Assembly: GCA_017430135.1 (NCBI GenBank)
Contig: JAFRNM010000020.1
Location: 1 to 32,000, forward strand
From: Clostridia bacterium
GTDB lineage: Bacteria; Bacillota; Clostridia; TANB77; CAG-508
DNA: 32,000 nucleotides
Direction of reading: 5' to 3'
The position numbers and the translations under genes are program-made. Below, piece by piece: positions 6,602-26,059 of this stretch. Below the pieces are notes generated by a model that worked only from the letters and a program-made list of their open reading frames with translations, was not told the origin of the DNA and did no database searches. Position 1 is the stretch's first letter, and each line of letters begins with the position of its first letter.

Positions 6602-6624
6602 GAGGAAAAATAAAATTTGTGTTA

Positions 6625-6906
6625 TTATTTGTTGTAAAAATATATTTTTTGTTTTTTTATGAATCTAAACATATAAGAAAAAACTTCTAAAATATTTTCT
6701 CCATTAAAACCTACAAAACTTAATAATAAAATTGGCAAACATAAAATAATTGCGAAAAATATTTTAATTGTTAAACTTGAAAAAATTAAATTTAAAATAA
6801 AAACAATTATTGCAATCCAAATTACATTAAATATTGCTGTGCTATATTCAATTACACCAAATATTTTATTATTAAAATTATAATTTTGGGGAAATATAAA
6901 GTTCAA
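6625..6906 (-). CDS. small two/three-TM membrane protein, TcpE/PrgI(VirB3)-like
   Basis: 93 aa. A short polar N-terminus is followed by hydrophobic helices. The SD AGGTGA lies 4 nt upstream of a TTG start at 6906-6904 (the ORF track writes the TTG as M). Sits in a T4SS-like gene string. Family assignment by size, topology and context only. Confidence 0.4.
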   Translation of the reverse strand: MNFIFPQNYNFNNKIFGVIEYSTAIFNVIWIAIIVFILNLIFSSLTIKIFFAIILCLPILLLSFVGFNGENILEVFSYMFRFIKKQKIYFYNK

Positions 6907-6929
6907 ATTTTCACCTCATTTCTTTTATG

Positions 6930-7049
6930 ACAAATAATATTAATACGTTCGTCCTTGTTGTCGCAACCTTCCTGATTTAATTATGACAGGTTGCTCCAGA
7001 ACTACGCTTCGCTCCGCACTACGCGGACTCACTACTTAATATTATTTGT
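6930..7049. repeat. GC-rich 92-nt core flanked by a perfect 14-bp inverted repeat (structured RNA / MITE-like element, unknown)
   Basis: ACAAATAATATTAA (6930-6943) and TTAATATTATTTGT (7036-7049) are exact reverse complements. The core 6944-7035 has 46 G+C of 92 by hand count, in an intergenic region that is otherwise about 20% GC. Internal stems are GCAACC(T)/(A)GGTTGC and TCCGC/GCGGA. Confidence 0.6.
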
Positions 7050-7069
7050 TAGTATAATGTAATTATTAA

Positions 7070-7909: not shown

Positions 7910-7941
7910 ATTTTCCTCCTTTTTTAAATAAATTTGAGATG

Positions 7942-8002
7942 TTAGAGGTTAGAATTAAAAAAACATATTTTACACATTTTGCTTATACTATCCAACCTCC
8001 AA
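7942..8002 (-). repeat. intercistronic long-range hairpin / inverted GTTRGA repeats
   Basis: In - strand RNA, UUGGAGGUUGGA (8002-7991) pairs with UCUAACCUCUAA (7953-7942): 12 bp including 2 G-U pairs. On the + strand these would be A-C mismatches, so the structure is specific to the coding strand. Confidence 0.4.
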
Positions 8003-8019
8003 TTTCCAACTTCTTACTT

Positions 8020-8340
8020 CTAACTAATTAAAGATCTAATTGCAGACAATATTAAGTCAATTGCTAAAATAAATGCATAAGAAAATAAAGAACCTTTAAT
8101 TATTTTTTTACCTGTTCTTATTTTTTCTTCATCACCAAAACTAAATTTTTTCATAAAAACTCCAGTTCCAACAGCAACTGCTGCAGCAGGAGTTGCAAGT
8201 TTTAGTAACCATCCTTCAATATTTTCGAATGCTGAATTTAATTTATTTATTATTTGTGGATCAGCTGCAAAAGAAATTGAACCTCCAATAAATAAAAATA
8301 AATTAAAAAATATAATTATTAAATAAATCTTTTTTTTCAT
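8020..8340 (-). CDS. VirB2/TrbC pilin-like small secreted membrane protein
   Basis: 106 aa. Signal peptide ending SFA-ADP, then two hydrophobic helices (LATPAAAVAVGTGVF; LFSYAFILAIDLILSAI). Its start is 3 nt from the stop of the upstream ATPase gene. Confidence 0.55.
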   Translation of the reverse strand: MKKKIYLIIIFFNLFLFIGGSISFAADPQIINKLNSAFENIEGWLLKLATPAAAVAVGTGVFMKKFSFGDEEKIRTGKKIIKGSLFSYAFILAIDLILSAIRSLIS

Positions 8341-8343
8341 AAA

Positions 8344-10718: not shown

Positions 10719-10794
10719 GGGCTATTAGCTCAGGTGGTAGAGCACTTGACTTTTAATCAAGTTGTCCCGCGTTCGAGTCGCGGATAGCTCACCA
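10719..10794 (+). tRNA. tRNA-Lys (anticodon UUU)
   Basis: Cloverleaf folded by hand: acceptor GGGCTAT/ATAGCTC, anticodon arm CTTGA-CTTTTAA-TCAAG, T-loop TTCGAGT, encoded CCA. Confidence 0.95.
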
Positions 10795-10830
10795 AAAGAA
10801 CTAAATAATTGAAAAATTATTTAGTTCTTT
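10795..10830 (+). repeat. perfect 16-bp hairpin with GAAA loop in the tRNA spacer
   Basis: AAAGAACTAAATAATT (10795-10810), GAAA loop, AATTATTTAGTTCTTT (10815-10830). Confidence 0.8.
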
Positions 10831-10838
10831 GTATATAA

Positions 10839-10913
10839 GGCCCGTTGGTCAAGCGGTTAAGACATCGCCCTTTCACGGCGGAGACATGGGTTCGATTCCC
10901 GTACGGGTCACCA
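10839..10913 (+). tRNA. tRNA-Glu (anticodon UUC)
   Basis: Acceptor GGCCCGT/ACGGGTC, anticodon loop CTTTCAC, T-loop TTCGATT, encoded CCA. Confidence 0.95.
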
Positions 10914-10918
10914 ATATT

Positions 10919-10995
10919 GCCACTTTAGCTCAGTTGGCCAGAGCACCGCACTTGTAATGCGGGGGTCCTCAGTTCGAATCTGAGAAGTGGCTCCA
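10919..10995 (+). tRNA. tRNA-Thr (anticodon UGU)
   Basis: Acceptor GCCACTT/AAGTGGC, anticodon arm CCGCA-CTTGTAA-TGCGG, T-loop TTCGAAT, encoded CCA. Confidence 0.95.
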
Positions 10996-12200: not shown

Positions 12201-12773
12201 ATGGAAAAAAAATTAAATAAATTATTTTGCGAATGTATAAAGGATTTTAATTTAATTGGAATAGATATTTTAAATGATAAAAAATATGGAAAAATAAATA
12301 TATCAATTTCAAAAAGAAATAATAAAAGATATGGTTGTTGCAAGCAGGAAAATCCAGATAAAAATTTTAAAACGACTATAAAAAATGGAATGAAGAGAAT
12401 AATTAGATATGAAAAATTTGAATTGCATAATATTGAAATAAGCCCATGGGTAATGCAACTTGAAGATGATATAATAAAAAATACAATAATACATGAATTA
12501 ATACATTGCTTGCCATATTGCAATAATCATGGAGAAATATTTAAAAAATATGCAAAAATATTTAATGAAAAATTTGAATATGACATTTCTCGCGTAGGAA
12601 ATAAGAAAAAGGATTTTGAAAAAAGTAATATAGAGTTTAATGAGAATGAAAACTATAAATATAGAATAATTTGTAAAAAATGTGGCCAAGAATTTTTTAG
12701 ACAACGATTGAATAAAGATTTTTTAAGAAAATATAGGTGTGGCAAATGTGGGGGTAAGTTTAGCATTTTATAA
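12201..12773 (+). CDS. SprT-like zinc metalloprotease with C-terminal zinc ribbon
   Basis: HELIH (HExxH) in IIHELIHCLPYCNNHG, plus CKKCG...CGKCGG at the C-terminus. Confidence 0.7.
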   Translation: MEKKLNKLFCECIKDFNLIGIDILNDKKYGKINISISKRNNKRYGCCKQENPDKNFKTTIKNGMKRIIRYEKFELHNIEISPWVMQLEDDIIKNTIIHELIHCLPYCNNHGEIFKKYAKIFNEKFEYDISRVGNKKKDFEKSNIEFNENENYKYRIICKKCGQEFFRQRLNKDFLRKYRCGKCGGKFSIL

Positions 12774-12887
12774 TTTATTTTGCTAATCATAAAAGGAACT
12801 TGTGCTAATATATATTTTTTTATAAAAAATGCTACAAAAATAGAAAATTGTGATATAATGTTTGGCGTATAGAAAGGATAGGGAAAA

Positions 12888-13163
12888 ATGACAAAAGAAT
12901 TTGTATGTGAATATATTTCAGACAAAATAATAAAAGAGGGAAATTTTATTAGAATTACATTTTTTGATATTAGAGTAAGACATAATTTATCAGCAGACGA
13001 AGTAGAAGAATTTTTAAAAGAAGCAAAGGAGATATTGGAGGATAAAGATTATCAAGTATATTTTACAACAGCCAAATATACATATAAACATGAACAAAGA
13101 ATAGTGCAAGATAACGAATACTTAATTGCTATAAAAGATGATGAAAATAATAAAAGGCAGTAA
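12888..13163 (+). CDS. hypothetical small acidic protein
   Basis: 91-aa ORF with a weak SD (AAAGGATAGGGAAAA). No motif recognised. Confidence 0.4.
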   Translation: MTKEFVCEYISDKIIKEGNFIRITFFDIRVRHNLSADEVEEFLKEAKEILEDKDYQVYFTTAKYTYKHEQRIVQDNEYLIAIKDDENNKRQ

Positions 13164-13428: not shown

Positions 13429-13551
13429 ATGGAATTATTAAAAAATAATAAAGGTATTACTCTTATTATACTTGTGGTTACTATTATTGTGTATTGGGTT
13501 TCTTATGACAAGAATAGAAAATATAGTAATTTAGTGGGTTTCAGCCTATGA
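13429..13551 (+). pseudogene. 5' fragment of pseudopilin-like (class III signal-like N-terminus) gene, interrupted after codon 21
   Basis: SD GGAGG precedes ATG 13429. MELLKNNKGITLIILVVTIIV is followed by element-derived codons and a TGA at 13549-13551. The matching continuation is at 25030. Confidence 0.8.
13466..13513. other. attL (B arm - GT core 13489-13490 - P' arm)
   Basis: The P' arm GTTTCTTATGACAAGA (13498-13513) is the 15/16 reverse complement of 25005-25020. The core GT lies 7 nt from the arm. Confidence 0.65.
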
Positions 13552-13675
13552 TTTATATAGATTTATAATGGAATTGTTATTAAAAAGGATAATAATTCTA
13601 TTTTTTTGTTAAAAATGAAAATTTAGTTAGATAGTTTTGACTAATTTCAAATTTCAAATTTTACAAACATTATTA

Positions 13676-13704
13676 TTGATAAATCAATTTTAAAATGATA
13701 TACT
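13676..13704 (+). promoter_or_regulatory. promoter of the DUF1016 nuclease gene
   Basis: TTGATA (13676-13681), 17-nt spacer, TGaTATACT extended -10 (13696-13704). Confidence 0.5.
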
Positions 13705-13731
13705 AGATAAAAATTGAAAGAAGGATTGCTT

Positions 13732-14787
13732 ATGGATAAAAATGAAATAATAGAAAATAATAATCAAGAAGAATTTAAAAAAATATTTAATAATATAAAA
13801 GATGAAATATTAAATGCACAATATGATATATTTAAAGGTGCTAATGCTAGAACTTTAAGCTTGTATTATACAATTGGAAAAATAATAAATGAAAATGCAA
13901 AATGGGGAAATAAATTTGTGAAAAACTTATCAATTAGCTTAAAAATTGATTTTCCCAATATGACTGGTTTTTCAATTACAAATTTAAAATATATGAGAAC
14001 ATATTATTTGGAATGTCAAAAAGATAACAAATTGAAAGAATTATCAGCAAAAATTCCATGGTCACATAATACAATAATTTTAAGCAAAATTAAAGATGAA
14101 GTACAAAGACAATGGTATATTGAACAAACAGAATTGAATGGTTGGGCGTATGATGTTCTAGCATTTCAAATAAAAAGTGATTTATATACAAGGCAAGTTT
14201 TTGGAGATAAGCCTAATAATTTTAAAAGAACTTTAAAGTCTCCACAAAGTGAATTAGCAAGAGATATGATGAAAGATCCGTATATATTAGATTTATCTTA
14301 TTTAAGAGAAAACTATATTGAAAAAGAATTAGAAAATGCAATGGTTGAAAGAATAAAAAATGTTCTTTTAGAATTAGGAAATGGTTTCAGCTTTGTAGGA
14401 AATCAATATAGAATTGAAGTTGATGGAGACGAATACTTCATCGATATGCTTTTCTACCATACAAAATTACATTGTTATATAGTTGTAGAATTAAAAAATA
14501 CACAATATAAACCAGAATATGCTGGAAAATTAAACTTTTATTTATCAGCAGTAGATGATTTGATAAAAACAGAAAATGATAATCCAAGTATTGGAATAAT
14601 ATTATGTAGAGAAAAGAAAAAGTTTTCAGTAGAGTATTCTTTAAAGGATATAAACAAACCTATTGGTGTAAGTTCTTATGAAATATCAAATATATTACCA
14701 AAAGAGATTATGGATGCATTGCCAACAGAGGAGGATTTAAATTTGCATATAGATATAATTGAAGATGAAAATGAAGAGGATAATTAA
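13732..14787 (+). CDS. DUF1016/YhcG-family PDDEXK nuclease-domain protein
   Basis: ATG 13732 lies 6 nt after AAGGA (the track start at 13714 is a TTG). The C-terminal core EYFIDMLFYHTKLHCYIVVELKNTQYKPEYAGKLNFYLSAVDD matches the D...ExK restriction-endonuclease-like fold of DUF1016. Confidence 0.8.
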   Translation: MDKNEIIENNNQEEFKKIFNNIKDEILNAQYDIFKGANARTLSLYYTIGKIINENAKWGNKFVKNLSISLKIDFPNMTGFSITNLKYMRTYYLECQKDNKLKELSAKIPWSHNTIILSKIKDEVQRQWYIEQTELNGWAYDVLAFQIKSDLYTRQVFGDKPNNFKRTLKSPQSELARDMMKDPYILDLSYLRENYIEKELENAMVERIKNVLLELGNGFSFVGNQYRIEVDGDEYFIDMLFYHTKLHCYIVVELKNTQYKPEYAGKLNFYLSAVDDLIKTENDNPSIGIILCREKKKFSVEYSLKDINKPIGVSSYEISNILPKEIMDALPTEEDLNLHIDIIEDENEEDN

Positions 14788-14829
14788 AAAATGAAATTGG
14801 TCAGACGCGTCTGACCAATTTCATTTTTT
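14786..14829. terminator. bidirectional terminator (22-bp perfect palindrome)
   Basis: AAAAAATGAAATTGGTCAGACG / CGTCTGACCAATTTCATTTTTT. Confidence 0.8.
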
Positions 14830-14850
14830 GGTTTTGCAATAAGGCTCATA

Positions 14851-15108
14851 TTATATATTATTAAAATATTCATCTGTTAAGTCATTTACAGATATACCAA
14901 AGATTTTAGCAAAGGCACATAATTCATAGTCAACAATAGTTCTTTTACCAATTTCAATATTGTAAATTGATTGTTTATGAATATCTATGCCCAATAACAT
15001 TAGTTTGTCAGATAGTTTTTGATAAGAAAGGTTATTCTTTTCACGATAATATTTGATTTTACTACCTACAACATTTAAACTACCATTTATTTTTCTTGAA
15101 TTATTCAT
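14851..15108 (-). CDS. XRE-family helix-turn-helix transcriptional regulator
   Basis: 85 aa. IKYYREKNNLSYQKLSDKLMLLGIDIHKQSIYNIEIGKR is an HTH_3 pattern. Divergent from a small ORF. Confidence 0.8.
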   Translation of the reverse strand: MNNSRKINGSLNVVGSKIKYYREKNNLSYQKLSDKLMLLGIDIHKQSIYNIEIGKRTIVDYELCAFAKIFGISVNDLTDEYFNNI

Positions 15109-15197
15109 ATAAACTCCTTAAAATTTCATATTTGTATTGATTTTATAATAAATATTTGCTACAATATAAATACACGCATTTATAAAGGAGAAAATTG

Positions 15198-15437
15198 ATG
15201 AGATTTATTAAATGTAAGAAACACAATTTAGAAATGAAAGAAATATATAAATTAGTAAATAAACTTATAAAAGATAAAAAGCTAAAATTTGAATTTTATA
15301 ATAGTATTCAAGAAATTGACTTATTACAATGTTATTATAATAAAAAAGCAGATACTATTGAATTTAGGTTTAGAGATGTTATGGGGGAAAACATAAAGGA
15401 ATTACAACTTATTATGCATCAAATGGGAAAAGATTAA
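15198..15437 (+). CDS. hypothetical small protein (divergent partner of the XRE regulator)
   Basis: AAGGAG precedes ATG 15198 by 6 nt. 79 aa, followed by a hairpin and T-tract at about 15453-15490. Confidence 0.45.
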   Translation: MRFIKCKKHNLEMKEIYKLVNKLIKDKKLKFEFYNSIQEIDLLQCYYNKKADTIEFRFRDVMGENIKELQLIMHQMGKD

Positions 15438-15605
15438 ACATATAATTTTGAAAAACGCGTTGAATTTAGAAATAAATTCGGCGCTTTTTTTGCTGGGAAT
15501 TTTTTGTCTACATCTATTTAGGTATAAGTTATACCATTTAAGAACTAAAAACGGAAATAAAGGCATTGTGGTGCGAAAGAAAATTGTGGGAAAGGAGTTT
15601 TTGAA

Positions 15606-16037
15606 ATGGCAGATTTGAAATTAAAAGGATTATGGATTCCATTTGGAGTAATGACAGATAAAAATTTGAGTGATAAAGAAAAGTATATATATTCGCTTGT
15701 AGTATTTTTGAGCCAAGAGAAACAATATTGCTATTGTACCAATAAAACTATAAGCGAGTTATTTAATATATCAGTAACTCAAGTATCGAAGCTAATAAAT
15801 GCATTAAAAGATAAAGGTTATATAAATATAGAAATGCAGTATAAAGAAAATACTAAACAAGTTGAAATTAGAAAAATAGTACCTATTGAAGAAAAATTAA
15901 ATACCCTATTTAACAAAAGTTTAATACCCTATACAACAAAACTTCAACACCCTATTGAAGAAAAGTTTAAGGATAATAAATATAATATAAATAATTATAA
16001 AAATAATAATAAAAGGGTTAGCAATTTTGAACAATGA
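15606..16037 (+). CDS. winged-helix (HTH_36 / DnaD-N-like) replication-type protein, apparently truncated by an in-frame TGA
   Basis: KEKYIYSLVVFLSQ...TISELFNISVTQVSKLINALKDKGYI is a wHTH. The ORF ends ...SNFEQ-TGA. The next 21 in-frame codons (DYEKEGYDFESLYANNKFTT) continue the tail motif seen in the DnaD-domain protein at 5569-6534. Confidence 0.6.
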   Translation: MADLKLKGLWIPFGVMTDKNLSDKEKYIYSLVVFLSQEKQYCYCTNKTISELFNISVTQVSKLINALKDKGYINIEMQYKENTKQVEIRKIVPIEEKLNTLFNKSLIPYTTKLQHPIEEKFKDNKYNINNYKNNNKRVSNFEQ

Positions 16038-16116
16038 GATTATGAAAAAGAGGGGTATGATTTTGAAAGCCTTTATGCCAATAATAAATTTACAACATAG
16101 AATTTGCCATATAAAC

Positions 16117-16157
16117 AAAATGAAAGTGTAGATTTTACAAATCTATGCTTTCATTTT
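16117..16157 (+). terminator. hairpin terminator after the wHTH gene
   Basis: 17-bp stem: AAAATGAAAGTGTAGAT / ATCTATGCTTTCATTTT, with 2 G-U pairs and a 7-nt loop. Confidence 0.6.
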
Positions 16158-16159
16158 GT

Positions 16160-16440
16160 ATGCGTGGAAGTTTGAAACCGAGCTAGGTTTCAAGAAAGAG
16201 TAAGAAAATAAATTTTTTTCTTGCTCTTTTTTGCCTGAATTTGCGAATAGCAAGTTTGGGCAATTCAAAAAAGTTCACTTAGTGAACTTTTTTGAAAAAA
16301 CCTAAAAAAGCGAGTAGCGATTTTTAGGTTTTGGGGTGTGGGGTTTGTCAAACCCTGCCACAACTAACACTTTTTAGCGACAAGCGTAAAAAAAGTGTTG
16401 TAGTTGTGTTACATTACTTTTAAAAAAGTAACTATAGAGC
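16160..16440 (+). other. candidate oriT / relaxase recognition region (cluster of 6-7 hairpins)
   Basis: IRs at 16172-16193, 16197-16227, 16267-16293, 16297-16332, 16341-16355, 16359-16408 and 16408-16432. Contains GGGGTGTGGGG at 16333-16343. Lies immediately upstream of the MobV relaxase gene. Confidence 0.5.
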
Positions 16441-16523
16441 TATGCCAAAGAAGATGAAAGCTAGTTCTAAAAGAAGAAATTTTTAAAGTGCTATTTGCAC
16501 AGATTAAGGAGGTAAATTTAAAA

Positions 16524-17777
16524 ATGAGTTATGTAATAATTAGAAATGCAAAATACAAAAGAGAAAATTTAAAAGGAATTTTTAGACACAATGAACGAAA
16601 GAATGTACATTATTCAAACGAAAATATTGATAAGGAAAAATCATATTTAAATTATTCGCTAAAAGCACCAAAATATAGTTATGAAAAAGAGTTTGACAAA
16701 ATTAAGGAAAAGTACAACTTAAAAGGTCAAATAAAAACAGTTAGTAATATAGCTTGTGAATATATAATTACATCTGACCATGATTTCTTTGAAAAAATAG
16801 GCAAAGAAGAAACAAAAAGATTTTTTGAAACTGCATATAAATTTGTAGCTGAATATAAAGATTTAGGAGAACAATATATAATGTCTAGCACTGTGCATAT
16901 GGATGAGCAAACGCCCCATATGCATTTGGTGTTTTTGCCAGTAGTCCATACAACAGATAAAAATGGAAATGCTATTGATAAACTTGCTTGTAGTGAATTT
17001 TGGAAAGCAAAAGATAGTTACAGGCAATTACAAGATACTTTTTTCAAATATATGGTAGAAAACGGGTTTGATTTGCAACGAGGTGTGCCAATAGAAGAAA
17101 CAAATAGAAAGCATTATTCTGTTGAAGAATATAAGCAAATAACAAATTTTAAGCAAACAAAGAAAACACTAGAAAATATAAAATTAGAATTACCAGATGT
17201 ACCAGAAATTGCAGATATAAATGTTGCAAGGTGGTCTAAAAAGAGAGATGAGAAGATTTTAGAAGAAATAATAAAACCCAAAGATGATTTGATACAAAAT
17301 TTATACCAAAACAATTTGGATTTGCATAGAGAATTAACAAGACAAGCACAGGTTATTGAAGAAGCTGAAAAATACCAAAAAGAAAGAGAAAAAATACTTG
17401 CAGACAACGAAGAATTGCACAATTCTGTAAAAATTATAGAGAAAGAATATAAGAAAAAAAGTAATACTCTTGATTTGCAATTTAGTAATAGAAAAAAAGA
17501 CTTGGAAAATGAATTTAAGGAAAAAGAAAGTCAACTCAAAAGTAATTGGATGGATATAATTGATGATTATAAAAAGGAAAACAAGCATTTGAAAAGGCTT
17601 GTAGAAACTTTCAAAAAGACTATTAAAATTTTTATAAAATGGATTTGCAAGAAATTTGATATTGCTGAAGATTATGCTTTAGTTCGTGATTTTGAAAAAG
17701 AAACTAGAATTTCACTAGATGCTGAAAAGCAAGTACAAAATGAAGATAGAGAAAAAGAGTGGGATTTGGAAATGTAA
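16524..17777 (+). CDS. mob: MobV-family (Mob/Pre) relaxase
   Basis: AAGGAGG precedes ATG 16524. MSYVIIRNAKYK..., FRHNERK (HxxR) and STVHMDEQTPHMHLVFLPV (HxDE...PHxH) are present. Coiled-coil C-terminal half. Confidence 0.9.
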   Translation: MSYVIIRNAKYKRENLKGIFRHNERKNVHYSNENIDKEKSYLNYSLKAPKYSYEKEFDKIKEKYNLKGQIKTVSNIACEYIITSDHDFFEKIGKEETKRFFETAYKFVAEYKDLGEQYIMSSTVHMDEQTPHMHLVFLPVVHTTDKNGNAIDKLACSEFWKAKDSYRQLQDTFFKYMVENGFDLQRGVPIEETNRKHYSVEEYKQITNFKQTKKTLENIKLELPDVPEIADINVARWSKKRDEKILEEIIKPKDDLIQNLYQNNLDLHRELTRQAQVIEEAEKYQKEREKILADNEELHNSVKIIEKEYKKKSNTLDLQFSNRKKDLENEFKEKESQLKSNWMDIIDDYKKENKHLKRLVETFKKTIKIFIKWICKKFDIAEDYALVRDFEKETRISLDAEKQVQNEDREKEWDLEM

Positions 17778-17805
17778 AAAGTCGATAGAGAAATTTATCG
17801 ACTTT
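17778..17805. terminator. bidirectional terminator
   Basis: AAAGTCGATA / TATCGACTTT with an 8-nt loop, between convergent mob and the XRE gene. Confidence 0.6.
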
Positions 17806-17808
17806 GGA

Positions 17809-18060
17809 TTATTTTTCATTTGAAGGAGTATATTCTAAAATGTCGGAAATATTACAATTAAGTACATAACAAAATCTTGAAATAATATCTAAATCTACAC
17901 GAGAAATGCTATTATTGTAATATCTATTTATTAAATCAAAGTTAGCACCTACAAGTGAGCATAGTTTATTTCTACTAATTCCTTTTTCTAGTAATATTTC
18001 TTTTAATTTTATTTTGGTTACTCCATAATTTTTTAATATGTAAATACTATTATCTTCCAT
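17809..18060 (-). CDS. XRE-family helix-turn-helix transcriptional regulator
   Basis: 83 aa. LKEILLEKGISRNKLCSLVGANFDLINRYYNN...VLNCNISDILEY is the typical Cro/CI-type HTH. Divergent from the four-gene operon. Confidence 0.8.
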   Translation of the reverse strand: MEDNSIYILKNYGVTKIKLKEILLEKGISRNKLCSLVGANFDLINRYYNNSISRVDLDIISRFCYVLNCNISDILEYTPSNEK

Positions 18061-18183
18061 AATTGCTAATCTCCAAACATTTAATAATAATTTATAGAAA
18101 TATTATATAATGATATTTAATTATTAACACTACCATACTTTTAATGCATTACTAGCAATAGTATCTTAAATAATATAAAAAAC

Positions 18184-18212
18184 TTGCAAAATATTGTTAA
18201 ATATGGTAAAAT
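18184..18212 (+). promoter_or_regulatory. promoter of the four-gene cargo operon
   Basis: TTGCAA (18184-18189), 17-nt spacer, TGgTAAAAT extended -10 (18204-18212). AT-rich palindromic arms TTAATAAT/ATTATTAA lie in the divergent region. Confidence 0.5.
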
Positions 18213-18257
18213 TAAAGTAGTTGAATGACAACAGAAAAATTTAGGAGGTAAAATTAT

Positions 18258-19208
18258 ATGATAAAGAAAATGGGAGAATTATTTATTTATTATGTACTAT
18301 CTACTGAAAAAGAAGGCACAAAGGATTTTTGTTTAAGAGGATGTGTTAATGCAACACAAAAAGCTCTAAATATAATAAAAAATGAAAATTTGCAGGCATG
18401 GAATGAACATTTAAAAAATGTATTTGCATTTTATAAAAATGGAACTCATCCAGGGTTGAATATACAAAATGAATTAATGAAATTATCACAAGAAGAATAT
18501 ATTCAAGATATTGAAAAAATACAGGATTTATTTAGAAAATATAGTAAAATGGGAACTAGTAATTATGATTCATTATATTTAGTTACTTCTGAAAAAGATG
18601 TGTCAAGATTGTCTTATTCTATTATTTTAAGAAATAAGTCTTTAAAAGAAATAAGAAACTTATTAGATGAAGAATTGGAAAAAACAAATAAAGACCAAGA
18701 AATATTGGCTATTCTTACAAACGAATTATGCTGGAAATATCGTTATGGAAGCAAAGAAGATATAAATTTTGATGAGGCTATAAAAGGTTGGAAAATGATA
18801 GCAGATTATTTGACAGATGCGAAATATGAGTTAGCTTGGTGCTATTTTGAGGGAAAAGGTATAAAAGAAGATAAGGAAAAGGCATATAATATATTCTGTG
18901 AAATAATGTCAAAAGATATAAGGGCTAAATTTGAAGTTGCTCGACTAAATCTTTTCGGAGATGGAACTCTAAAAGATGAGAACAAAGCATTTAATATATT
19001 TACTGAAATGAAAGAAAAAGTACCATATGATATGGAAAAATTGATATGCAAATATTTGGGAAGAATGTATTTATATGGCTTAGGAATTAAACAAGATAAA
19101 AAGAAAGGCTTAGAATTATTAGAGAAAGCCTGGAATAGCGGATTTGTAGATTATAAATATGATGAAATAAAAAAAGCGTTAAAAGAGTATTATGGAATTA
19201 ACGATTAA
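18258..19208 (+). CDS. Sel1-like repeat (SLR) protein with unknown ~180-aa N-terminal domain
   Basis: The C-terminal half has SLR units (AKYELAWCYFEGKGIKEDKEKAYNIF; ARLNLFGDGTLKDENKAFNIF; LGRMYLYGLGIKQDKKKGLELLEKA). GGAGG lies 9 nt upstream of the ATG. Confidence 0.65.
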   Translation: MIKKMGELFIYYVLSTEKEGTKDFCLRGCVNATQKALNIIKNENLQAWNEHLKNVFAFYKNGTHPGLNIQNELMKLSQEEYIQDIEKIQDLFRKYSKMGTSNYDSLYLVTSEKDVSRLSYSIILRNKSLKEIRNLLDEELEKTNKDQEILAILTNELCWKYRYGSKEDINFDEAIKGWKMIADYLTDAKYELAWCYFEGKGIKEDKEKAYNIFCEIMSKDIRAKFEVARLNLFGDGTLKDENKAFNIFTEMKEKVPYDMEKLICKYLGRMYLYGLGIKQDKKKGLELLEKAWNSGFVDYKYDEIKKALKEYYGIND

Positions 19209-19230
19209 TTTATTAAAGAGGTGATATAAT

Positions 19231-19854
19231 ATGCCATTAAGATTTTTTGAAAGAAAATTAGAAAATCCAGAAAGTAATATCGAAAATGAAGGTAACTTAT
19301 ATGAAACAACTAATCCAAGAGAAGTTGATGAACCATATGAAGATGAATTTGATAAAAGAATGGGAGCGAGTGATTTAGATTCAAAAAGTTATAGTAAGTT
19401 TGAACAAACGACTAAACCACTTTCTAAAAGGGAAGCTTTTTTGCAATCTATTAGAGTAGAACAAAAAACAGAAGTATCTCCGTTAGTGTTGGCATATAGA
19501 GAACTAGATAGAGCAAGACAAAGTGGAAATAGAGAAGCTATTATACAAGCGGAAGATACAATATTGGATTTAGAACGACAAGAAGAACAAAGGGAATACA
19601 ATACAAGAATTGCAGAGTTAAGGCAAATGAAGGCTACAGCCAAATCAATGGGAGATAAAACAGAATTAGCTAGATTTGTAAAATTAAGAGATGCATTTGT
19701 AGTAGAGATGAAATATGATGAATTAAATTATCAAATCAAAAAATTACAAAATGCTCAAAGGCTATCACCTAGTAGAGATAATTTGCAAAAAATTGCTGAA
19801 TTAAGACAAGAAATGGAAAGTTTAGAAATGCCAGAAAATACAAAAGGAAGATAA
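19231..19854 (+). CDS. hypothetical charged (E/R/Q-rich) coiled-coil protein
   Basis: 207 aa. SD is AGAGGTGA. Composition is visibly different from the N/K/I-rich neighbours. No motif recognised. Confidence 0.5.
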   Translation: MPLRFFERKLENPESNIENEGNLYETTNPREVDEPYEDEFDKRMGASDLDSKSYSKFEQTTKPLSKREAFLQSIRVEQKTEVSPLVLAYRELDRARQSGNREAIIQAEDTILDLERQEEQREYNTRIAELRQMKATAKSMGDKTELARFVKLRDAFVVEMKYDELNYQIKKLQNAQRLSPSRDNLQKIAELRQEMESLEMPENTKGR

Positions 19855-19929
19855 TATAAATAGTTCAATAGGAATATGGTGATTATATGTTTCATTATAT
19901 TCCTATTTATTGATACGGAGGAAAAAATA

Positions 19930-20757
19930 ATGAGTTATATGGATGCCCAAAAATATCTTAATGAAAATAGATTTGAAAATGCATATAATATTTTAGTTAA
20001 AATAGCAAATAACAAATATGATTTCAAACAAAATGAAGCTAATTATAGTTTAGGTGAAATGTATTTACAAGGATTATATGTAAAAAAAGATCTTGATAGA
20101 GCTGTCGAATGTTTTAAAAGAGCTGATATTATAGAAAATCAATATTTGGCATTACTATATTATTATGGAATATTTGGAATACAAAAAAATTATGAAGAAG
20201 CTTGGAAATACAGTCATTCCACTAATAAAGATATTCACGATCCAAAAGAAATTATGGCAAAAAATATTTTATCAAAATATATTGAAAATTTAATTTTATA
20301 TAACAACTATTGGAATAATCAATTTAAAAAATATAGATTTGTTAGTAAAGCTAATATCGAAGATGAAAAGATTAGATTTGAAATTATAAATGATAATTTA
20401 AAAATATTTTTTAATGAATATAATAGTATATCAATTTTAAAAGACGAAAAATATGGGCAGATTTTTTCATATATATTAAATAATATTAAGGATATTGATT
20501 TTTACTTTGTTTTAGGAATATTGTTATTTAGAGATAAAAGATATAATGAGGCTATCAATTATATACAAAAATGTGTTGAAAATAATCATTCTTTTTCAAA
20601 AATAATTTTGTCATATTTATATAACGAAGGGCTTAGCGTTGAAAAAAATAGTTACAAAGCTAATGAAATATTAAATAGTATGAATACTGATAGATTAAGT
20701 GATATATTAGCTATAAATTACAAAAATGATATTTGTAAATGGATTGAAACAAACTAA
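19930..20757 (+). CDS. Sel1-like repeat / TPR-like protein
   Basis: GGAGG (19917-19921) precedes ATG 19930. The track start at 19876 lies inside a hairpin. Contains ANYSLGEMYLQGLYVKKDLDRAVECFKRA and ILSYLYNEGLSVEKNSYKANEIL SLR units. Confidence 0.55.
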   Translation: MSYMDAQKYLNENRFENAYNILVKIANNKYDFKQNEANYSLGEMYLQGLYVKKDLDRAVECFKRADIIENQYLALLYYYGIFGIQKNYEEAWKYSHSTNKDIHDPKEIMAKNILSKYIENLILYNNYWNNQFKKYRFVSKANIEDEKIRFEIINDNLKIFFNEYNSISILKDEKYGQIFSYILNNIKDIDFYFVLGILLFRDKRYNEAINYIQKCVENNHSFSKIILSYLYNEGLSVEKNSYKANEILNSMNTDRLSDILAINYKNDICKWIETN

Positions 20758-20784
20758 GAGATATATTTATATGGGGGTGATTAA

Positions 20785-21264
20785 ATGATTATACAAACTA
20801 ATAGATACAAAAAACTTTTAAAAAGGAACATTATTAGTATAATTGTAAGTTTCTTCATATTAATAGGATTAATTTTTTTAAACGAATTTATAAAAAATAA
20901 TAATATATATGGTAATGATTATAGACAAGTAAAAGCGGAGGTTGTGAAAATAATTGAAAGTCCTGTAGAACAATTAGTAGGCACAAAACATCATAAAACA
21001 ATGAAATTTGTTAAACTTTATAATATAAAAATAAAATATAATGTAAATGATACTGAATATCAAACTGAAATAAGCGGAATAAAAAATAAAAATATAGATA
21101 AAGAATTAAATGTATATTATAGTATTAATAATCCCAATGAAATAAAAGCAAACCTAAAAATAAATGAAAATATTGAAATATTTATTACGATTTCGGTATT
21201 AGTATGTATTGCATTTATTTTAAGGATAATTGATAAGTTAGTACATAAAGAATTATATTTATAA
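20785..21264 (+). CDS. DUF3592-like two-TM membrane protein
   Basis: N-terminal TM (IISIIVSFFILIGLIFL), a beta-rich middle (VKAEVVKI...YNIKIKYNVNDTEYQTE...LNVYYSINNPNEIKANL) and a C-terminal TM. This topology and pattern are typical of DUF3592. Confidence 0.5.
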   Translation: MIIQTNRYKKLLKRNIISIIVSFFILIGLIFLNEFIKNNNIYGNDYRQVKAEVVKIIESPVEQLVGTKHHKTMKFVKLYNIKIKYNVNDTEYQTEISGIKNKNIDKELNVYYSINNPNEIKANLKINENIEIFITISVLVCIAFILRIIDKLVHKELYL

Positions 21265-21266
21265 AT

Positions 21267-21290
21267 AAAATGCCTATAAAAAGGCATTTT
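21267..21290. terminator. bidirectional terminator
   Basis: AAAATGCCT / AGGCATTTT with a 6-nt loop, between convergent genes. Confidence 0.65.
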
Positions 21291-22383
21291 ATTTTGTTTC
21301 TTCAAGCCACTTGTAAACCTCGCTTTCAGTAAGTTCTCCATGTTTTAATTTTGTAATTTTATCTTTTGCTATTTTTTTCCAGTTTTCAAAGTCTTTTTTT
21401 AATTTTTTATCATTTTTATTTTTATTAACGATTCCAAATTTTTGTTGATAAAGTTTTCTGTATTCTCCATAAGCAGATTTTTCTTTTAGTCTGTTTTGGT
21501 ATGAAAGCATTGCTCCTTGTTCTCTGCAAGTTTTCTTATTTCCTTTTGGGTAATCGCAGTAAACTTCATCTAGTCTTGAATTTGGTATAAAGTACATACC
21601 ACAATTCTGACATTTTTTTATTGGATTATTTGTTGTTTTTGAAAGTTCTTCTAATATTGCATAACAAATGCTAGATAGGTCATAGCTTTGGTGTGTATCT
21701 TGCATTGAAATTAGCATACTTTTATTTTTTAGGCTCTCTAAAAGATTTTGTTCACTCATTCCAGTTAGTTCACCATTTTTATTTGAATAACTATCTCTAA
21801 TTATATGGTCATTTTTAGCATAAGTGTATAGGCTACCTTTATGTGTTATTAAATATACTGCATATCTTTCACTTGCAGAATATGGCTTTAAATCTTCTTT
21901 TTCATCTAAATTGTATATGTAAGTTACTGCATTTATTAATTCTTGTTGTATTTCTATTAGTTGTTCTTGCAAATTATTGAAAACTGCTTTTGTTTCTTTC
22001 AAATAATTTTCATCACTTCCATAGTTATTGCTTAAATCAAATTTATAGTTTTCATCTAGGTCTTTTAAAATTTCAAAACCATAAGCATAGAAAAAGTCTT
22101 TGTATGCTGTTTCATACGAAGAAAGGTTTGCATTTAAAAATCTTAACAATAATAAGCCAAATTTTTCTACATAAGGAAAATAAATAGATGCTGGGTGTTT
22201 TAATCCATTATCTGTTTTTTCTTTTTCACTCCAATATACAGTTCTTATTCTATTATCTAAATCCATATTAAAACTAGCCTTATAAAAATACAAAGGTGTA
22301 GAATAATATTCTTCTCTTTTCTCTTTATTAAACCAAATATAAAAATTTTCAAAAGAAGTTGTTTCTGGTAAATTAGTATTCAT
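21289..22383 (-). CDS. DUF6076-like protein with C-terminal Cys cluster
   Basis: 364 aa. IKKCQNCGMYFIPNSRLDEVYCDYPKGNKKTCREQGA is the Cys-rich motif I associate with DUF6076 proteins of clostridial mobile elements. Assignment is from memory, not a search. Confidence 0.5.
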   Translation of the reverse strand: MNTNLPETTSFENFYIWFNKEKREEYYSTPLYFYKASFNMDLDNRIRTVYWSEKEKTDNGLKHPASIYFPYVEKFGLLLLRFLNANLSSYETAYKDFFYAYGFEILKDLDENYKFDLSNNYGSDENYLKETKAVFNNLQEQLIEIQQELINAVTYIYNLDEKEDLKPYSASERYAVYLITHKGSLYTYAKNDHIIRDSYSNKNGELTGMSEQNLLESLKNKSMLISMQDTHQSYDLSSICYAILEELSKTTNNPIKKCQNCGMYFIPNSRLDEVYCDYPKGNKKTCREQGAMLSYQNRLKEKSAYGEYRKLYQQKFGIVNKNKNDKKLKKDFENWKKIAKDKITKLKHGELTESEVYKWLEETK

Positions 22384-22451
22384 ATCAATACTTTCCTCCG
22401 TTTCTAGTATATTGTATCACGAAACAATAACAAAAAATAATAAAATTGTTA

Positions 22452-22480
22452 TTGACATTCTATAATTATTATACTATAAT
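22452..22480 (+). promoter_or_regulatory. promoter of the small HTH gene
   Basis: TTGACA (22452-22457), 17-nt spacer, TATAAT (22475-22480). Confidence 0.55.
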
Positions 22481-22568
22481 ATCTCTAACAATACAATACT
22501 TTTTAGAATAATAATTGTTTTAAATTGTAGACTAAAATTTCACTACAATATTTTAAGAAAGAAATGGG

Positions 22569-23021
22569 GTGATAAAAATAAACAAAACAGATGAGATAAT
22601 CAAACTTTTTTATGAAGAACACAAAAGACCAACAGATATTGCTGAACAAGTAGGTGTTGCAAATTCTTATGTAACAAAAGTAATCCAAAAAGATAAGAGA
22701 TATATTGAAGAAAAGCAACATCGAAAAGAAGAAAACAAAGAAACTCATAAGGTAAGCAAAAGAAGATATATTCAAAAAAGAAGAGAAAAAGAAAAACAAG
22801 AATATCTTGCAATGGTAGTTCAAATAAATAGAGATAACAATTATTTGTCAACTAAAAAGCAAGTGTCAGATATAGCTTTTGCAAAGTGGAACAGAGGAAT
22901 GTTTGAATATGATAAACATAGTTCCGATTTAGTGTTAAGAAATGGTATAACAACAGGTTATAATGTACCAAAAAGAGTTGGTAATGTGGTAAGTGCCGAT
23001 ATGATAAGGGCATATAATTAA
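22569..23021 (+). CDS. small helix-turn-helix protein (sigma-70 region-4/Psq-like HTH), basic middle region
   Basis: GTG start. EIIKLFYEEHKRPTDIAEQVGVANSYVTKVIQ is an HTH. 150 aa. Confidence 0.5.
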   Translation: MIKINKTDEIIKLFYEEHKRPTDIAEQVGVANSYVTKVIQKDKRYIEEKQHRKEENKETHKVSKRRYIQKRREKEKQEYLAMVVQINRDNNYLSTKKQVSDIAFAKWNRGMFEYDKHSSDLVLRNGITTGYNVPKRVGNVVSADMIRAYN

Positions 23022-23191
23022 ATAACATAAACAAATTAGCCAAAGGATATTAAGGCTATTTTTTTATTTCAAATAAGAGTTTTTAGGCTTTATATAGCTT
23101 GAAAGCTCTTATTTTTAGGAAGGGGAAAAAGATGATAAGGTTTTATAAAAATTTCAAAAAGTATGTGGATTTATAGAAAGGAGTAACGCCT

Positions 23192-23326
23192 ATGGGTAAA
23201 AGAAAAACAGAAGAAATAACTATAATAAACAAATTTAATGAAAAATCTTCTGTTGATGTTAAAAAATCAATAGAAAATGCTTTCAAATTGTTTTATAGCT
23301 TAAATGTAAGTAAAAACAAAATATAA
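23192..23326 (+). CDS. possible 44-aa micro-ORF upstream of the recombinase
   Basis: AAAGGAG precedes ATG 23192 by 7 nt (MGKRKTEEITIINKF...). Too short for the ORF track. No homology evidence. Confidence 0.3.
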   Translation: MGKRKTEEITIINKFNEKSSVDVKKSIENAFKLFYSLNVSKNKI

Positions 23327-23340
23327 ATTAAAAAATTAAG

Positions 23341-23446
23341 AGTTTCGCCTATAATTCAGTGTTTTATAAATTTTTATATTAGTTTAAATCGGTTGACTTT
23401 TTATAAATTGAGCGGTAAAATAAGCACATAAATTATAGGCGAAACT
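23341..23446. repeat. perfect 16-bp inverted repeat bracketing the recombinase promoter
   Basis: AGTTTCGCCTATAATT (23341-23356) and AATTATAGGCGAAACT (23431-23446), 74 nt apart. Confidence 0.85.
23393..23421 (+). promoter_or_regulatory. promoter of the serine recombinase gene
   Basis: TTGACT (23393-23398), 17-nt spacer, TAAAAT (23416-23421). Lies inside the IR-bounded segment. Confidence 0.5.
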
Positions 23447-23467
23447 TACTAAAAGTGAGGAGGTAAA

Positions 23468-25015
23468 ATGTTAGTAAGTAACGCAAGAAATTATAATTGT
23501 GCTTTATATTGTAGGTTATCTAGTGAAGATGAGTTGCAAGATGAAAGCAGAAGTATAACAAATCAAAAAGAATTATTAGAAAGATATGCAAAAGAAAACA
23601 ATCTAAATATTTATGATGTTTATGTAGATGATGGTTATAGTGGAACGAACTTTGAAAGACCAGATTTTCAAAGAATGATAAGAGATATTGAAAATAAAAA
23701 AGTAAATATGGTAATAGTAAAAGATAGTTCAAGACTTGGTAGGGATTATATTCAATTTGGAGAATATATTGAAAAATATTTCCCACAAAATAATGTAAGA
23801 GTAATATCAATATTAGATAACTACGATTCTGAACTTGACAATGGTGTAGCAGATACATTGCCATTTAGAGCTGTAATGAACGATTACTATGCAAAAGACA
23901 CATCAAAAAAAGTAAGAAGCACAAAGCAAAAAAATGCAAAACAAGGCTTGTTCATGGGAAGATATGCACCATTTGGCTATGATAAGTCAGCAGAAGATAA
24001 ACATAAACTTGTTATAAATGAAGAACAAGCAAAAGTAGTAAGAAAAATCTTCAAACTATATTTAGAAGATAATTCTCCACTACAAATATCATATATATTG
24101 ATAAATGAGAAAATTCCAACACCATCACAAATAATGAATATGCAAAAACAGACTACAAAATGGTATCCAGAAGTAATAAGAAGAATATTACAAAATGAAA
24201 TGTATATAGGAAATATGGTGCAATGTAGACAAAGGAAAATCAATTATAAATTGAAAAAAGTAGTAGGTTTGCCAAAGTCTGAATGGATTATTGTAGAAAA
24301 TACCCACGAGCCAATAATAGAAAAAGAAACATTTTATGCAGTTCAGCAAATAATGAAAAGCAAAGAAAAAACAAGAGCAAAATCTGTAAAACTATTATTG
24401 AAAGGTTTGGCAGTATGCAAAGAATGTGGTAAGAAAATGAGTACAACGGTTGATTGTCATGGAAATCATAACAGATATTTGAGATGTACCAGTTATGCAA
24501 CAGCACCACGACAAAGAATTTGCACACCACATATAATGAACTATCAAAACTTGGAAAATGCCATAATAAAGGAACTACAAGAACTTTGTAAACAATATTT
24601 AGATAAAAATGAATTAAAGCAAATAGTAGATAAGGAAAATCAAGAAATAGACAACGAAAACAAGGTTAAAAAAGAAAAAAGTGTTACACAAAAGGCAATA
24701 GATGTATTATCTAATCAAATTGATAAGCTATACGAAGATAAGTTAAAGGGCTTATTAAATGAATTAGATTTTAAAAGGCTTTATGATAAAAAATTGGCTG
24801 AAAGAGAATTGAAACAAAAGTATTTGAAAGAATTAGAAAGTGTTACTTTTGAAAAAAAAACTATTGATTATGAAAAAATTATGTCAGATTTCTTAAAGAA
24901 AGAAAATATAACAAGCTATATGCTTACAAGTTTAATTGATAAAATTGAAATTGATAATGATAAAAATGTAACGGTTTATTATAAATTTAGTCCATTAAGT
25001 AATGTCTTGTCATAA
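23468..25015 (+). CDS. large serine recombinase (integrase/excisionase of the element)
   Basis: 515 aa. Resolvase catalytic domain (ALYCRLSSEDE, VKDSSRLGRD), recombinase domain, Zn-ribbon CKECGKKM...C...C and a coiled-coil C-terminus. SD is GAGGAGG. Confidence 0.95.
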   Translation: MLVSNARNYNCALYCRLSSEDELQDESRSITNQKELLERYAKENNLNIYDVYVDDGYSGTNFERPDFQRMIRDIENKKVNMVIVKDSSRLGRDYIQFGEYIEKYFPQNNVRVISILDNYDSELDNGVADTLPFRAVMNDYYAKDTSKKVRSTKQKNAKQGLFMGRYAPFGYDKSAEDKHKLVINEEQAKVVRKIFKLYLEDNSPLQISYILINEKIPTPSQIMNMQKQTTKWYPEVIRRILQNEMYIGNMVQCRQRKINYKLKKVVGLPKSEWIIVENTHEPIIEKETFYAVQQIMKSKEKTRAKSVKLLLKGLAVCKECGKKMSTTVDCHGNHNRYLRCTSYATAPRQRICTPHIMNYQNLENAIIKELQELCKQYLDKNELKQIVDKENQEIDNENKVKKEKSVTQKAIDVLSNQIDKLYEDKLKGLLNELDFKRLYDKKLAERELKQKYLKELESVTFEKKTIDYEKIMSDFLKKENITSYMLTSLIDKIEIDNDKNVTVYYKFSPLSNVLS

Positions 25016-25052
25016 AAAACTATAAGCGTTTTGCTAATTTTAGCTGGTATAA
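25005..25052. other. attR (P arm - GT core 25028-25029 - B' arm)
   Basis: The P arm TCTTGTCATAAAAAAC (25005-25020) overlaps the recombinase stop codon. The core GT lies 7 nt from the arm. Confidence 0.65.
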
Positions 25053-26059
25053 GCATTTCTGCTATTACAGGAGGAGATAGTTCTATGGACAAGGCTAAGA
25101 AAGCTAAAGATGAAACTGCAATAAAAGCAGAAATGGAAGAATTACAAAAAATAATAAATCAATCTGCTGCTAAAGGTATAAGGCATGGAAATTTCTCGGG
25201 TTCAGCAGATTCACAAACTATTAGAGATGCTTTAAAGAAGAACAAACTTATTGAAGAAAATCCAGATGATGTAATTATTGATGGTCAGAGTCAATTTGAT
25301 GTTACTGGTGCAAAAACAGGGCAAAAATATGCAATAACAAGCAGTGGAGAAGTTATCAGAATTTGCAAAGAAAGAATTGGTGATGCAGTTGGTTATTCTA
25401 CATCTATGAATGAAGTTACACTAGATAACTGGAAAGTTTTTTATAAAGAAATAAAAAATGGCACGGAATATGTTTATTTTATATATGGAGATTATTTTCC
25501 GTATAATGCAGTTTCTTCTATAAGCGAATTGTCAAAAGGAAATAGTGATTATATGATCAAAAGTACAAATAGAGCCAATTTATTGAATGCACTAACAACA
25601 AAATCAAATTGGAAAGATTTATTAAAGGGGGCAATAAATGGCAATTCGATAGATTATAGTAATGTTACAAATGATAATATATATGCTATAGGAAGTCCAA
25701 CAATAGAATTGTGGGTAAATAGTTGGAATAAAAGTTATCCAAGTGATAAAATCTTTATAAGATATGAAGAAAATGTAAAAAATAATAATTATGATGGTTG
25801 GTATGTATCCTTAAATAATCCTGCAAATGCTGGAGCGGCATATTTATCTCAAAAAATAGGTTATTCTAATAAATTATATTATCCATATACAAACAAATTA
25901 GATAGTTGTGAGGGATACTGGTTATCCTCGCCTTCTGTATATAATAATGGGCAAACAGTACAGACACGCTATACAGGAGTTTTGGGATATTACTATGGAG
26001 CTGATGGACCATGTTCAATAAGACCAGTTATATGCTTACCTTCAAGCGTATTAGAATAA
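25030..26059 (+). pseudogene. 3' part of the interrupted pseudopilin-like gene (C-terminal domain ...GYWLSSPS...SIRPVICL)
   Basis: Begins mid-helix (LLILAGISISAITGG) with no SD or ATG. In frame with 13429-13490 once the element is removed. Confidence 0.8.

Follow-up and report, generated by a model that had tools for sequence, protein, structure and literature searches.

Organization of the operon

The 32,000-nucleotide window analysed here (contig JAFRNM010000020.1 of assembly GCA_017430135.1) comes from the chromosome of a very AT-rich Clostridia metagenome-assembled genome and carries gyrA, nrdI, tRNA genes and VanW. An integrative mobilizable element (IME) is inserted in it, and we examined a four-gene operon carried in the accessory slot of that element, which a preliminary description, made from the letters of the window, had singled out as cargo resembling no recognised system. 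Coordinates are window positions unless a related locus is named; the related loci that were compared (~30 in all) are labelled L009, L011, L025 and so on.

Four open reading frames (ORFs) run in the same direction on the plus strand, with gaps of 22, 75 and 27 nt between them and a GGAGG-type ribosome-binding site at each start. Gene 1 (18258-19208) encodes a 316-aa protein in which a helical N-terminal domain (N-domain, residues ~1-155) is followed by Sel1-like repeats (SLRs), and gene 2 (19231-19854) encodes a 207-aa protein that is the most widely conserved member of the set. The 275-aa product of gene 3 (19930-20757) consists of Sel1 and tetratricopeptide (TPR) repeats only, with the TPR match at residues 190-222, and the 159-aa product of gene 4 (20785-21264) has two transmembrane (TM) segments predicted from hydropathy. 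Two starts are available for gene 3, at 19876 and 19930; gene callers take the latter on identical contigs, and we favoured it because of its GGAGG-type ribosome-binding site.

Upstream of the operon and divergent from it lies an XRE gene on the minus strand (17809-18060), whose product is a Cro/C1-type helix-turn-helix (HTH) protein, and a hairpin between this gene and the mob gene (17778-17805) forms a bidirectional terminator. The operon promoter, TTGCAA-17 nt-TGgTAAAAT with an extended -10 element, was located on the plus strand at 18184-18212. Since promoter-like sites in this ~25% GC DNA are found at about the chance level (51, compared with 41 in shuffled sequence), the call rests on conservation: the site is identical base for base in the 94%-identical copies of the operon in L025 and L027, which lack the XRE gene and in which the promoter lies directly 3' of the mob stop codon. 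At the distal end, a terminator with a 13-bp stem (21263-21294; dG -14 kcal/mol, z = -4.4) is common to the operon and the convergent DUF6076 gene; it overlaps the stop codon of the latter and is therefore bidirectional. A search of the intergenic region (18061-18257) for operators found AT-rich imperfect repeats only, and an Rfam scan of the window returned tRNAs only.

Ratios of nonsynonymous to synonymous substitution (dN/dS), calculated against the 94%-identical L025 copy, were 0.19, 0.14, 0.17 and 0.14 for genes 1 to 4, with zero indels. All four are therefore real coding genes under purifying selection, and the four ORFs form a genuine operon. The coordinates and ribosome-binding sites, the conserved promoter, the terminator, the divergent repressor-type gene, and the relaxase, serine recombinase and split-gene junctions of the carrier (see below) bear out the layout of the preliminary description, which had read here four co-directional ORFs with one promoter, one terminator and a divergent XRE gene, carried as cargo on a mobilizable element.

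Genes 1 and 2 form a conserved core

The Sel1 repeats previously read in genes 1 and 3 were recovered by the Pfam profile PF08238 at 62 bits for gene 1 (E = 5.5e-17) and 51.5 bits for gene 3 (E = 1.1e-13), against a gathering cut-off of 30.7, which places both proteins in the family. Matches to PDB sequences (Sel1 proteins, SEL1L) span residues 158-298 of gene 1. The N-domain that precedes them is predicted to be all-helical and could be a degenerate extension of the solenoid; the AlphaFold2 (AF2) single-sequence model has a predicted local distance difference test score (pLDDT) below 50 in this region and is unusable. An exhaustive HMMER search of 1.84 billion proteins returned an N-domain family of 11 representatives at 50% identity, the genuine members of which all pair the N-domain with Sel1 repeats, and the most conserved stretch in their alignment (A5) is GTLNYDSLYLxxSEKDV. 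A word-index search with an N-domain fragment gave zero matches, and missed even the parent protein although this is in the collection. No relative of the N-domain was found in Pfam, or in PDB with a profile built from A5. Two candidate assignments were rejected: matches to Exo5/PD-(D/E)xK-like proteins (E = 0.0025-0.034) were below threshold and A5 has no conserved acidic/lysine motif, and the invariant Rx4-6H of HEPN domains, a possibility raised by PMC3710099, is absent from A5.

Gene 2 had been described as an E/R/Q-rich coiled-coil protein. The composition is as stated, with Glu, Arg and Gln making up 30.4% of its residues compared with 12-16% in its neighbours, and Arg reaching 9.7% despite the ~25% GC content of the DNA; because GC content at third codon positions (GC3) is uniform, we attribute this to amino-acid constraint and not to foreign origin. 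The long coiled coil was not recovered. In the AF2 model made with a 22-sequence alignment (A1), residues 1-80 are disordered and residues 84-199 form a compact helical bundle with pLDDT > 90. Two near-invariant motifs, MARRFGRNxENPERRIE and PYEDEFDKK, lie in the disordered N-terminus, and the protein has zero hydrophobic segments. Its homologues form 52 clusters at 90% identity, are 39-58% identical and unnamed, and all come from uncultured low-GC Clostridia. The A1 profile gave nothing significant against PDB sequences, and a Foldseek search with the model returned generic helical bundles only (best E = 0.85 in PDB and 0.078 in BFVD).

A Sel1-repeat gene lies directly upstream of the gene-2 homologue in 11 of the 14 distinct contexts, at gaps of 3-33 nt. 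In the lineages of L009, L011, L013, L018, L019, L021, L022 and L024 this is a full-length gene-1 homologue, 47-52% identical with the N-domain included, and L015 and L028, which make up a second lineage, have an all-SLR protein of 371 aa at the gene-1 position. The module was found in serine-recombinase IMEs, in elements with RepA_N, Mob_Pre and a tyrosine integrase, beside a type IV secretion system (T4SS) coupling protein, and as a bare pair in chromosomes. L028 (1929-4789) has the plain form, in which an XRE gene faces the SLR gene, gene 2 and a third gene. In the chromosomal-looking locus L011 (8805-11188) the pair is followed, at gaps of ~220 nt, by genes for a membrane-anchored WG-repeat protein and a patatin-like phospholipase. 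At L016 (5801-10373) a solitary gene-2 copy stands amid uncharacterised, partly very acidic proteins (495, 150, 99, 228 and 120 aa); this cluster adjoins a 441-aa protein, a Fic protein and an HTH protein, and these three are also found on the flanks of the module in L013.

The pairwise identities of gene 1 correlate with those of gene 2 (r = 0.53-0.70), whereas for gene 1 and the Mob relaxase r is about 0. The window and L019, for example, are 75% identical in Mob and 51% in gene 1, and L009 and L019 are 58% identical in Mob and 85% in gene 1. From these incongruent identity matrices it follows that the module has been exchanged between element backbones, and the idea of a backbone function inherited together with Mob was rejected. 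Judged from such sequence comparisons, the Sel1-repeat protein and gene 2 are a fixed core that travels as a co-diverging cassette, with a swappable third position and a swappable repressor, and the operon in the window belongs, as a lineage-specific variant, to a broader undescribed module whose known occurrences are all in uncultured low-GC Clostridia.

The third position and the regulator slot vary between loci

The usual gene 3' of gene 2 encodes a Q/E-rich third protein of ~200-220 aa. This protein, which has the motif AHQLFVDKISGNGAYHT and a coiled-coil segment in its N-terminal part, was found in seven lineages (L009, L013, L015, L019, L021, L024 and L028). Profile-profile comparison gave a probability below 1% for a relationship with gene 2, 3 or 4, and the idea that it is a diverged form of one of these was dropped. 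Its own profile (A4) returned nothing significant from PDB. In L021 (2436-3719) an IS110-family transposase has inserted 3' of the gene-2 homologue and ahead of the third gene, so that the module is split but both genes are kept.

A remnant of the third gene was sought in the window and none was found; genes 3 and 4 occupy its position there. Both are confined to this element lineage and absent from all diverged relatives. The sole relative of gene 3 among the loci is a 169-aa SLR protein of L015, 35% identical over 89 aa, and the homologues of gene 4 among 5.8 billion proteins searched are near-identical copies only. In L015 (3234-9620) the module has gained, besides this SLR protein, an 811-aa AAA+ ATPase (AAA_lid_6, weakly IetA-like) and a nine-repeat DUF4116 protein, and this version adjoins a T4SS coupling protein.

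Gene 4 had been compared with DUF3592 (PF12158) on account of its layout. That layout is indeed present, since hydropathy places TM segments at residues 15-33 and 130-148 around a middle segment of ~95 aa, but the family assignment fell away: the Pfam profile did not match at E <= 0.1, nor even at E <= 10, and the NCBI name is 'hypothetical'. The C-proximal LNVYYSINNPNEIKA resembles the V.V.Y.P..P motif of DUF3592, a similarity that we take as a lead only.

The XRE protein scores 57.7 bits against PF13443 (HTH_26; cut-off 22, E = 1.4e-15), which places it among the Cro/C1 (XRE) HTH regulators. A segment of ~400 bp that comprises the XRE gene with its own terminator and promoter region (17781-18177) is absent from L025, L026 and L027, in which the same four-gene operon is 94-96% identical and the regulator slot is empty. 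The presence and absence of the segment are clean, as seen by comparing window 17781-18177 with L025 5398-5402 and with L027 at ~100. At other loci the slot holds an unrelated 87-aa HTH protein (L019, L021), another HTH protein of 81 aa (L024), a 112-aa HTH protein (L015, L028) or a 53-aa ribbon-helix-helix (RHH) protein (L009). A small repressor-type gene usually faces the module; on several occasions it has given way to a non-orthologous HTH or RHH gene, or has been lost.

The variation at these two positions bears on whether the whole set is one machine, an obligate system of five components (the XRE protein, two SLR sensors, the coiled-coil protein and a membrane effector), none of which would function without the others. 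A tight operon with a single promoter and terminator, in which all four genes are under purifying selection, is what such a system would look like, and every near-identical copy has the complete set of four. No diverged relative has gene 3 or gene 4, however, the XRE gene is missing from copies that are 94-96% identical, and both the core pair and the triad with the third protein occur without genes 3 and 4. We consider an obligate system of five parts very improbable. The gene-neighbourhood comparison proposed in the preliminary description accordingly divides the set: genes 1 and 2 are co-conserved, and genes 3 and 4 and the XRE gene are not.

A divergent XRE gene beside a helical-repeat gene, next to the relaxase gene, also brings to mind a regulator of the element's own life cycle. 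On plasmid pLS20 the TPR anti-repressor Rap, the XRE-type repressor Rco and Phr form a switch (PMC7641744, PMC3814332), and the SLR protein might likewise be an anti-repressor or sensor that acts on the XRE protein or another regulator and controls excision or mobilization, in the manner of Rap/Rco or ImmR/ImmA. Both cases join a helical-repeat protein with an N-terminal helical domain to a divergent XRE-type repressor gene on a Gram-positive mobile element; the N-domain and repeats of gene 1 loosely parallel the layout of Rap, and the module is kept in minimal elements such as L019. In contrast to Rap-Phr, the repeats are of the Sel1 kind, the signalling propeptide is absent and the gene downstream of the repeat gene encodes a 207-aa cytoplasmic protein without any hydrophobic segment in place of a short secreted propeptide, and homology was not detected, with no match of gene 1 to the Rap, NprR or PlcR families in Pfam and NCBIfam scans. 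Moreover, genes 1 and 2 are conserved across loci whose slot is empty or holds a non-orthologous regulator, so they cannot be tuned to one repressor. The module phylogeny is decoupled from that of Mob, and the pair also occurs in chromosomal contexts without element genes. A life-cycle role is therefore improbable in our estimation.

Comparison with described systems

Pfam, NCBIfam and PHROGs scans of the operon proteins, the third protein and the partner proteins of other loci returned only Sel1/TPR, HTH and generic AAA domains, and PADLOC found nothing for the third protein and the L015 partners beyond a generic AAA similarity to IetA. No catalytic or NTPase signature was detected in any component of the module. 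The arrangement also differs from a type II toxin-antitoxin system with an XRE antitoxin: the XRE gene is divergent, no toxin family was matched in Pfam, PADLOC, NCBIfam or PHROGs, and the operon persists without the XRE gene. Together with the PDB and Foldseek searches, these results agree with the earlier statement that the gene content matches no described system; generic Sel1 and HTH domains are, as far as such searches reach, all that the operon has in common with anything known. The cassette is conserved and previously undescribed, and no known kind fits it.

Several known systems nevertheless share individual traits with the module. SLR and TPR repeats serve as protein-binding sensors or adaptors in defence proteins, among them the TPR/Sel1 C-terminal sensors of Avs5 (PMC12931631), and the gene for AbiU2, an Abi protein of the HEPN type, shares operons with Sel1 genes (PMC3710099). 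As in those anti-phage systems, the solenoid could recognise proteins, the downstream genes are swapped modularly and the carriers are mobile. Unlike them, the module yielded neither a STAND NTPase nor a HEPN domain nor any other effector domain, and the gene-1 N-domain is without the invariant Rx4-6H.

Immunity proteins offer a second comparison. Sel1E of Klebsiella pneumoniae is a Sel1-repeat protein and a proven immunity protein of a type VI secretion system (PMC7108748), TM proteins of the DUF3592 type, a family with no known function, are encoded in LXG toxin loci (PMC12482557), and the AID clusters of gut Bacteroidales are mobile arrays of orphan immunity genes (bioRxiv 10.1101/471110). 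The operon could on this model be a Firmicute counterpart of the AID clusters, an orphan array in which each product neutralises a different contact-dependent toxin, such as the LXG toxins of type VII secretion systems (T7SS). The setting would suit such a role: the contigs are of gut or rumen origin according to their sample names, the SLR proteins are cytoplasmic and would act by binding, and the genes are small, co-directional and non-enzymatic, lie on mobile elements of gut bacteria and vary in content between elements. Known arrays mix and match their genes, however, whereas here the SLR protein, gene 2 and the third protein form a fixed set that stays together at 45-85% identity across many elements of a Firmicute host, and genes 1 and 2 co-diverge. 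Neither toxin nor LXG nor T7SS genes were seen in the ~30 loci, secretion genes are not nearby, and gene 4 is not detectably a DUF3592 protein. We judge an immunity array to be unlikely.

Proposed function

Element-to-element exchange of the cassette, and swapping of output and regulator, typify conflict systems, and for this reason we rank a role in conflict first, tentatively, as one possibility among several. The module would be borne by the element and would protect the host or the element itself against phages, other mobile elements or rival toxins. With the same reserve, it may be a new non-enzymatic conflict system, for defence or counter-defence, in which a Sel1-repeat protein and a protein with a disordered N-terminus and helical bundle make up the core, the third position is swapped, and the cassette is distributed among MOBV elements of uncultured gut and rumen Clostridia. 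The variants at the third position would then be the Q/E-rich soluble protein, the pair of SLR and two-TM proteins seen in the window, and the version expanded by an AAA ATPase.

As no enzyme is present, the module would act by binding, through stoichiometric protein-protein contacts and not catalysis. The SLR solenoid of gene 1 would hold gene 2, probably by way of the conserved motifs in its disordered N-terminus, and the pair would recognise or sequester another protein. Output would be set by the swappable downstream genes; in the window it would be anchored in the membrane, with gene 3 as an SLR adaptor to gene 4. Where a divergent repressor is present, it would keep expression low.

Several observations weigh against a conflict role of this kind. 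The evidence that gene 1 binds gene 2 consists of linkage and co-divergence, and a family of such small size and narrow range yields weak comparative statistics. The solitary gene-2 copies of L016, L017 and L020 still have the N-terminal motifs, so that these may have a binding partner other than gene 1, and in L018 and L022 the core pair stands without further module genes. The third protein is soluble and does not resemble an effector. Nuclease, NTPase, protease and pore-forming signatures were all missing from the core, and PADLOC-DB v2 gave no match for genes 1-3, the XRE gene or the DUF6076 gene, and for gene 4 only a chance-level match to Cas3 (E = 0.025). Finally, in the copies with an empty regulator slot the operon keeps its promoter without any repressor, which argues against a strongly toxic output.

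On another reading the module would serve the element itself. Genes 1 and 2, with or without the third protein, might bind a protein of the host or of a competitor and so act as stoichiometric inhibitors or adaptors, on entry of the element into a cell or during its residence there, for counter-defence, establishment or host manipulation. The components are without exception non-enzymatic and highly charged, with a helical or disordered structure, no effector is present and a repressor-less operon is tolerated, and the module lies nearly always on or beside Mob_Pre or T4SS elements and not within defence islands of the chromosome. Genes whose expression has to be timed typically have a repressor slot of their own, and the pairing of a TPR anti-repressor with an XRE-type repressor on pLS20 provides a precedent. 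The TPR Rap proteins of mobilizable and conjugative Bacillus plasmids, and anti-defence operons under repressor control, would be the analogues. Solitary copies of gene 2 are also compatible with such a function, including the one in the acidic-protein cluster of L016 next to Fic and HTH genes. Against it, the module lies 3' of mob and thus not obviously in the first-entering region, its proteins have no similarity to known anti-defence proteins or to Rap, and a two-TM protein would be unusual in a set of soluble inhibitors. The gene-1 N-domain, gene 2, gene 4 and the third protein had zero matches among PLSDB plasmids and INPHARED phages (megablast, tblastn) and among IMG/VR contigs (pattern scans), so that phage records offer no counterpart. 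On balance an element-serving role seems doubtful to us, though it deserves a place beside the conflict role.

If the proposed conflict or host-manipulation role is correct, the module would be a system built wholly of binding proteins, with no effector that can be recognised, which PADLOC models and Pfam miss completely, and one more case in which outputs are swapped while the sensor pair stays fixed. Its practical value is modest, given a tiny family, a single uncultured clade and no phenotype.

The carrier element and its surroundings

The operon lies in the accessory slot of a Tn4451-like IME that splits a prepilin-like gene. The 5' half of this gene, which encodes a prepilin-like N-terminal anchor (MELLKNNKGITLIILVVTII), and the left junction are at 13429-13490 (plus strand, within ~15 bp), and the same motif is split in L025. 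The 3' half (VLLILAGISISAITGGDS...) is at 25028-26059, also on the plus strand, where the ORF opens in the middle of a hydrophobic helix, and identity with L027 stops at 25029. The two halves of one gene at the flanks and the loss of L027 identity place the element at ~13490-25029 (~11.5 kb). Both junctions have a candidate GT crossover dinucleotide, and copies of the element are found elsewhere.

The first gene inside the element encodes a YhcG/DUF1016 PD-(D/E)xK nuclease (13714-14787, E = 3.4e-62), which is also present in the L025-type element. The Mob_Pre (MOBV) relaxase gene (16488-17777, plus strand; PF01076, E = 3.3e-47) has its likely true start at ATG 16524, giving 417 aa, the length that is also called on identical contigs. 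Beyond the operon, on the minus strand, lies the DUF6076 gene (21289-22383; PF19553, E = 1.6e-11), a backbone gene of the element that adjoins the module in L009, L019, L021, L024 and L025, and at the right end a large serine recombinase gene (23468-25015, plus strand) with Resolvase, Recombinase and Zn-ribbon domain matches. An HTH_36/DnaD-like gene is also present, and relatives L009 and L025 have TnpV.

Tn4451 and Tn4453 are IMEs of Clostridia with the large serine recombinase TnpX, the Mob/Pre relaxase TnpZ, and TnpV (PMC5704250). The carrier resembles them in its Mob_Pre relaxase, its large serine recombinase at one end and as the sole integrase, its size of ~11.5 kb and its single accessory slot. 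It differs in holding the orphan operon in the slot instead of catP/catD, in having the DUF6076, HTH_36/DnaD-like and YhcG nuclease genes, and in inserting into a conserved coding segment of prepilin-like genes, where Tn4451 is described as using many GA sites. We therefore regard it as a new member of the Tn4451-like elements. Such carriers are small, little-studied mobilizable elements of uncultured gut Clostridia.

Near-identical elements at other sites (L025, L027) indicate that the element moves. In L025 a related element splits another paralogue of the prepilin-like family at the same place (GITLIALIITI | ... | VLLILAGITISALTGSDS; ~560-650 and ~12380-12900), and the right flank of L027 (6965-7200) is a third paralogue. 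What is interrupted each time is the conserved stretch that encodes the N-terminal hydrophobic segment (KGITLIAL...|...LLILAGI), in different prepilin-like surface-protein paralogues. Because different paralogues are split there, the pattern suggests that the serine recombinase targets this conserved segment. Insertion in prepilin-like genes may help to delimit such elements in metagenome-assembled genomes.

The window is 94% identical to the copies from the operon promoter onwards and only ~80% identical in the backbone to the left of the XRE region; the elements are therefore mosaic. Related elements (L009/L030, 762-2108 and 11549-13208; L025, 10725-12360) also carry a group II intron reverse transcriptase, and their serine recombinase is called as two ORFs (~192 + 336 aa), which implies a frameshift or a split gene.

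A second mobile-element-like block occupies 4526-9900 on the minus strand, between nrdI and a tRNA-Lys/Glu/Thr cluster (10719-10995). Its genes encode a DnaI/IstB-like ATPase, a DnaD/DnaB_2 replication protein, a TrbL/VirB6-like protein, a T4SS pilin-like protein and a VirD4/TraG-type coupling protein, and the mobilizable element might hijack a mating apparatus supplied by this block. At the left edge of the window, two ORFs (41-508 and 548-1375) with zero Pfam matches lie in the DNA upstream of gyrA (1-1400), which is extremely AT-rich, with a GC content of 15% over positions 1-1000.

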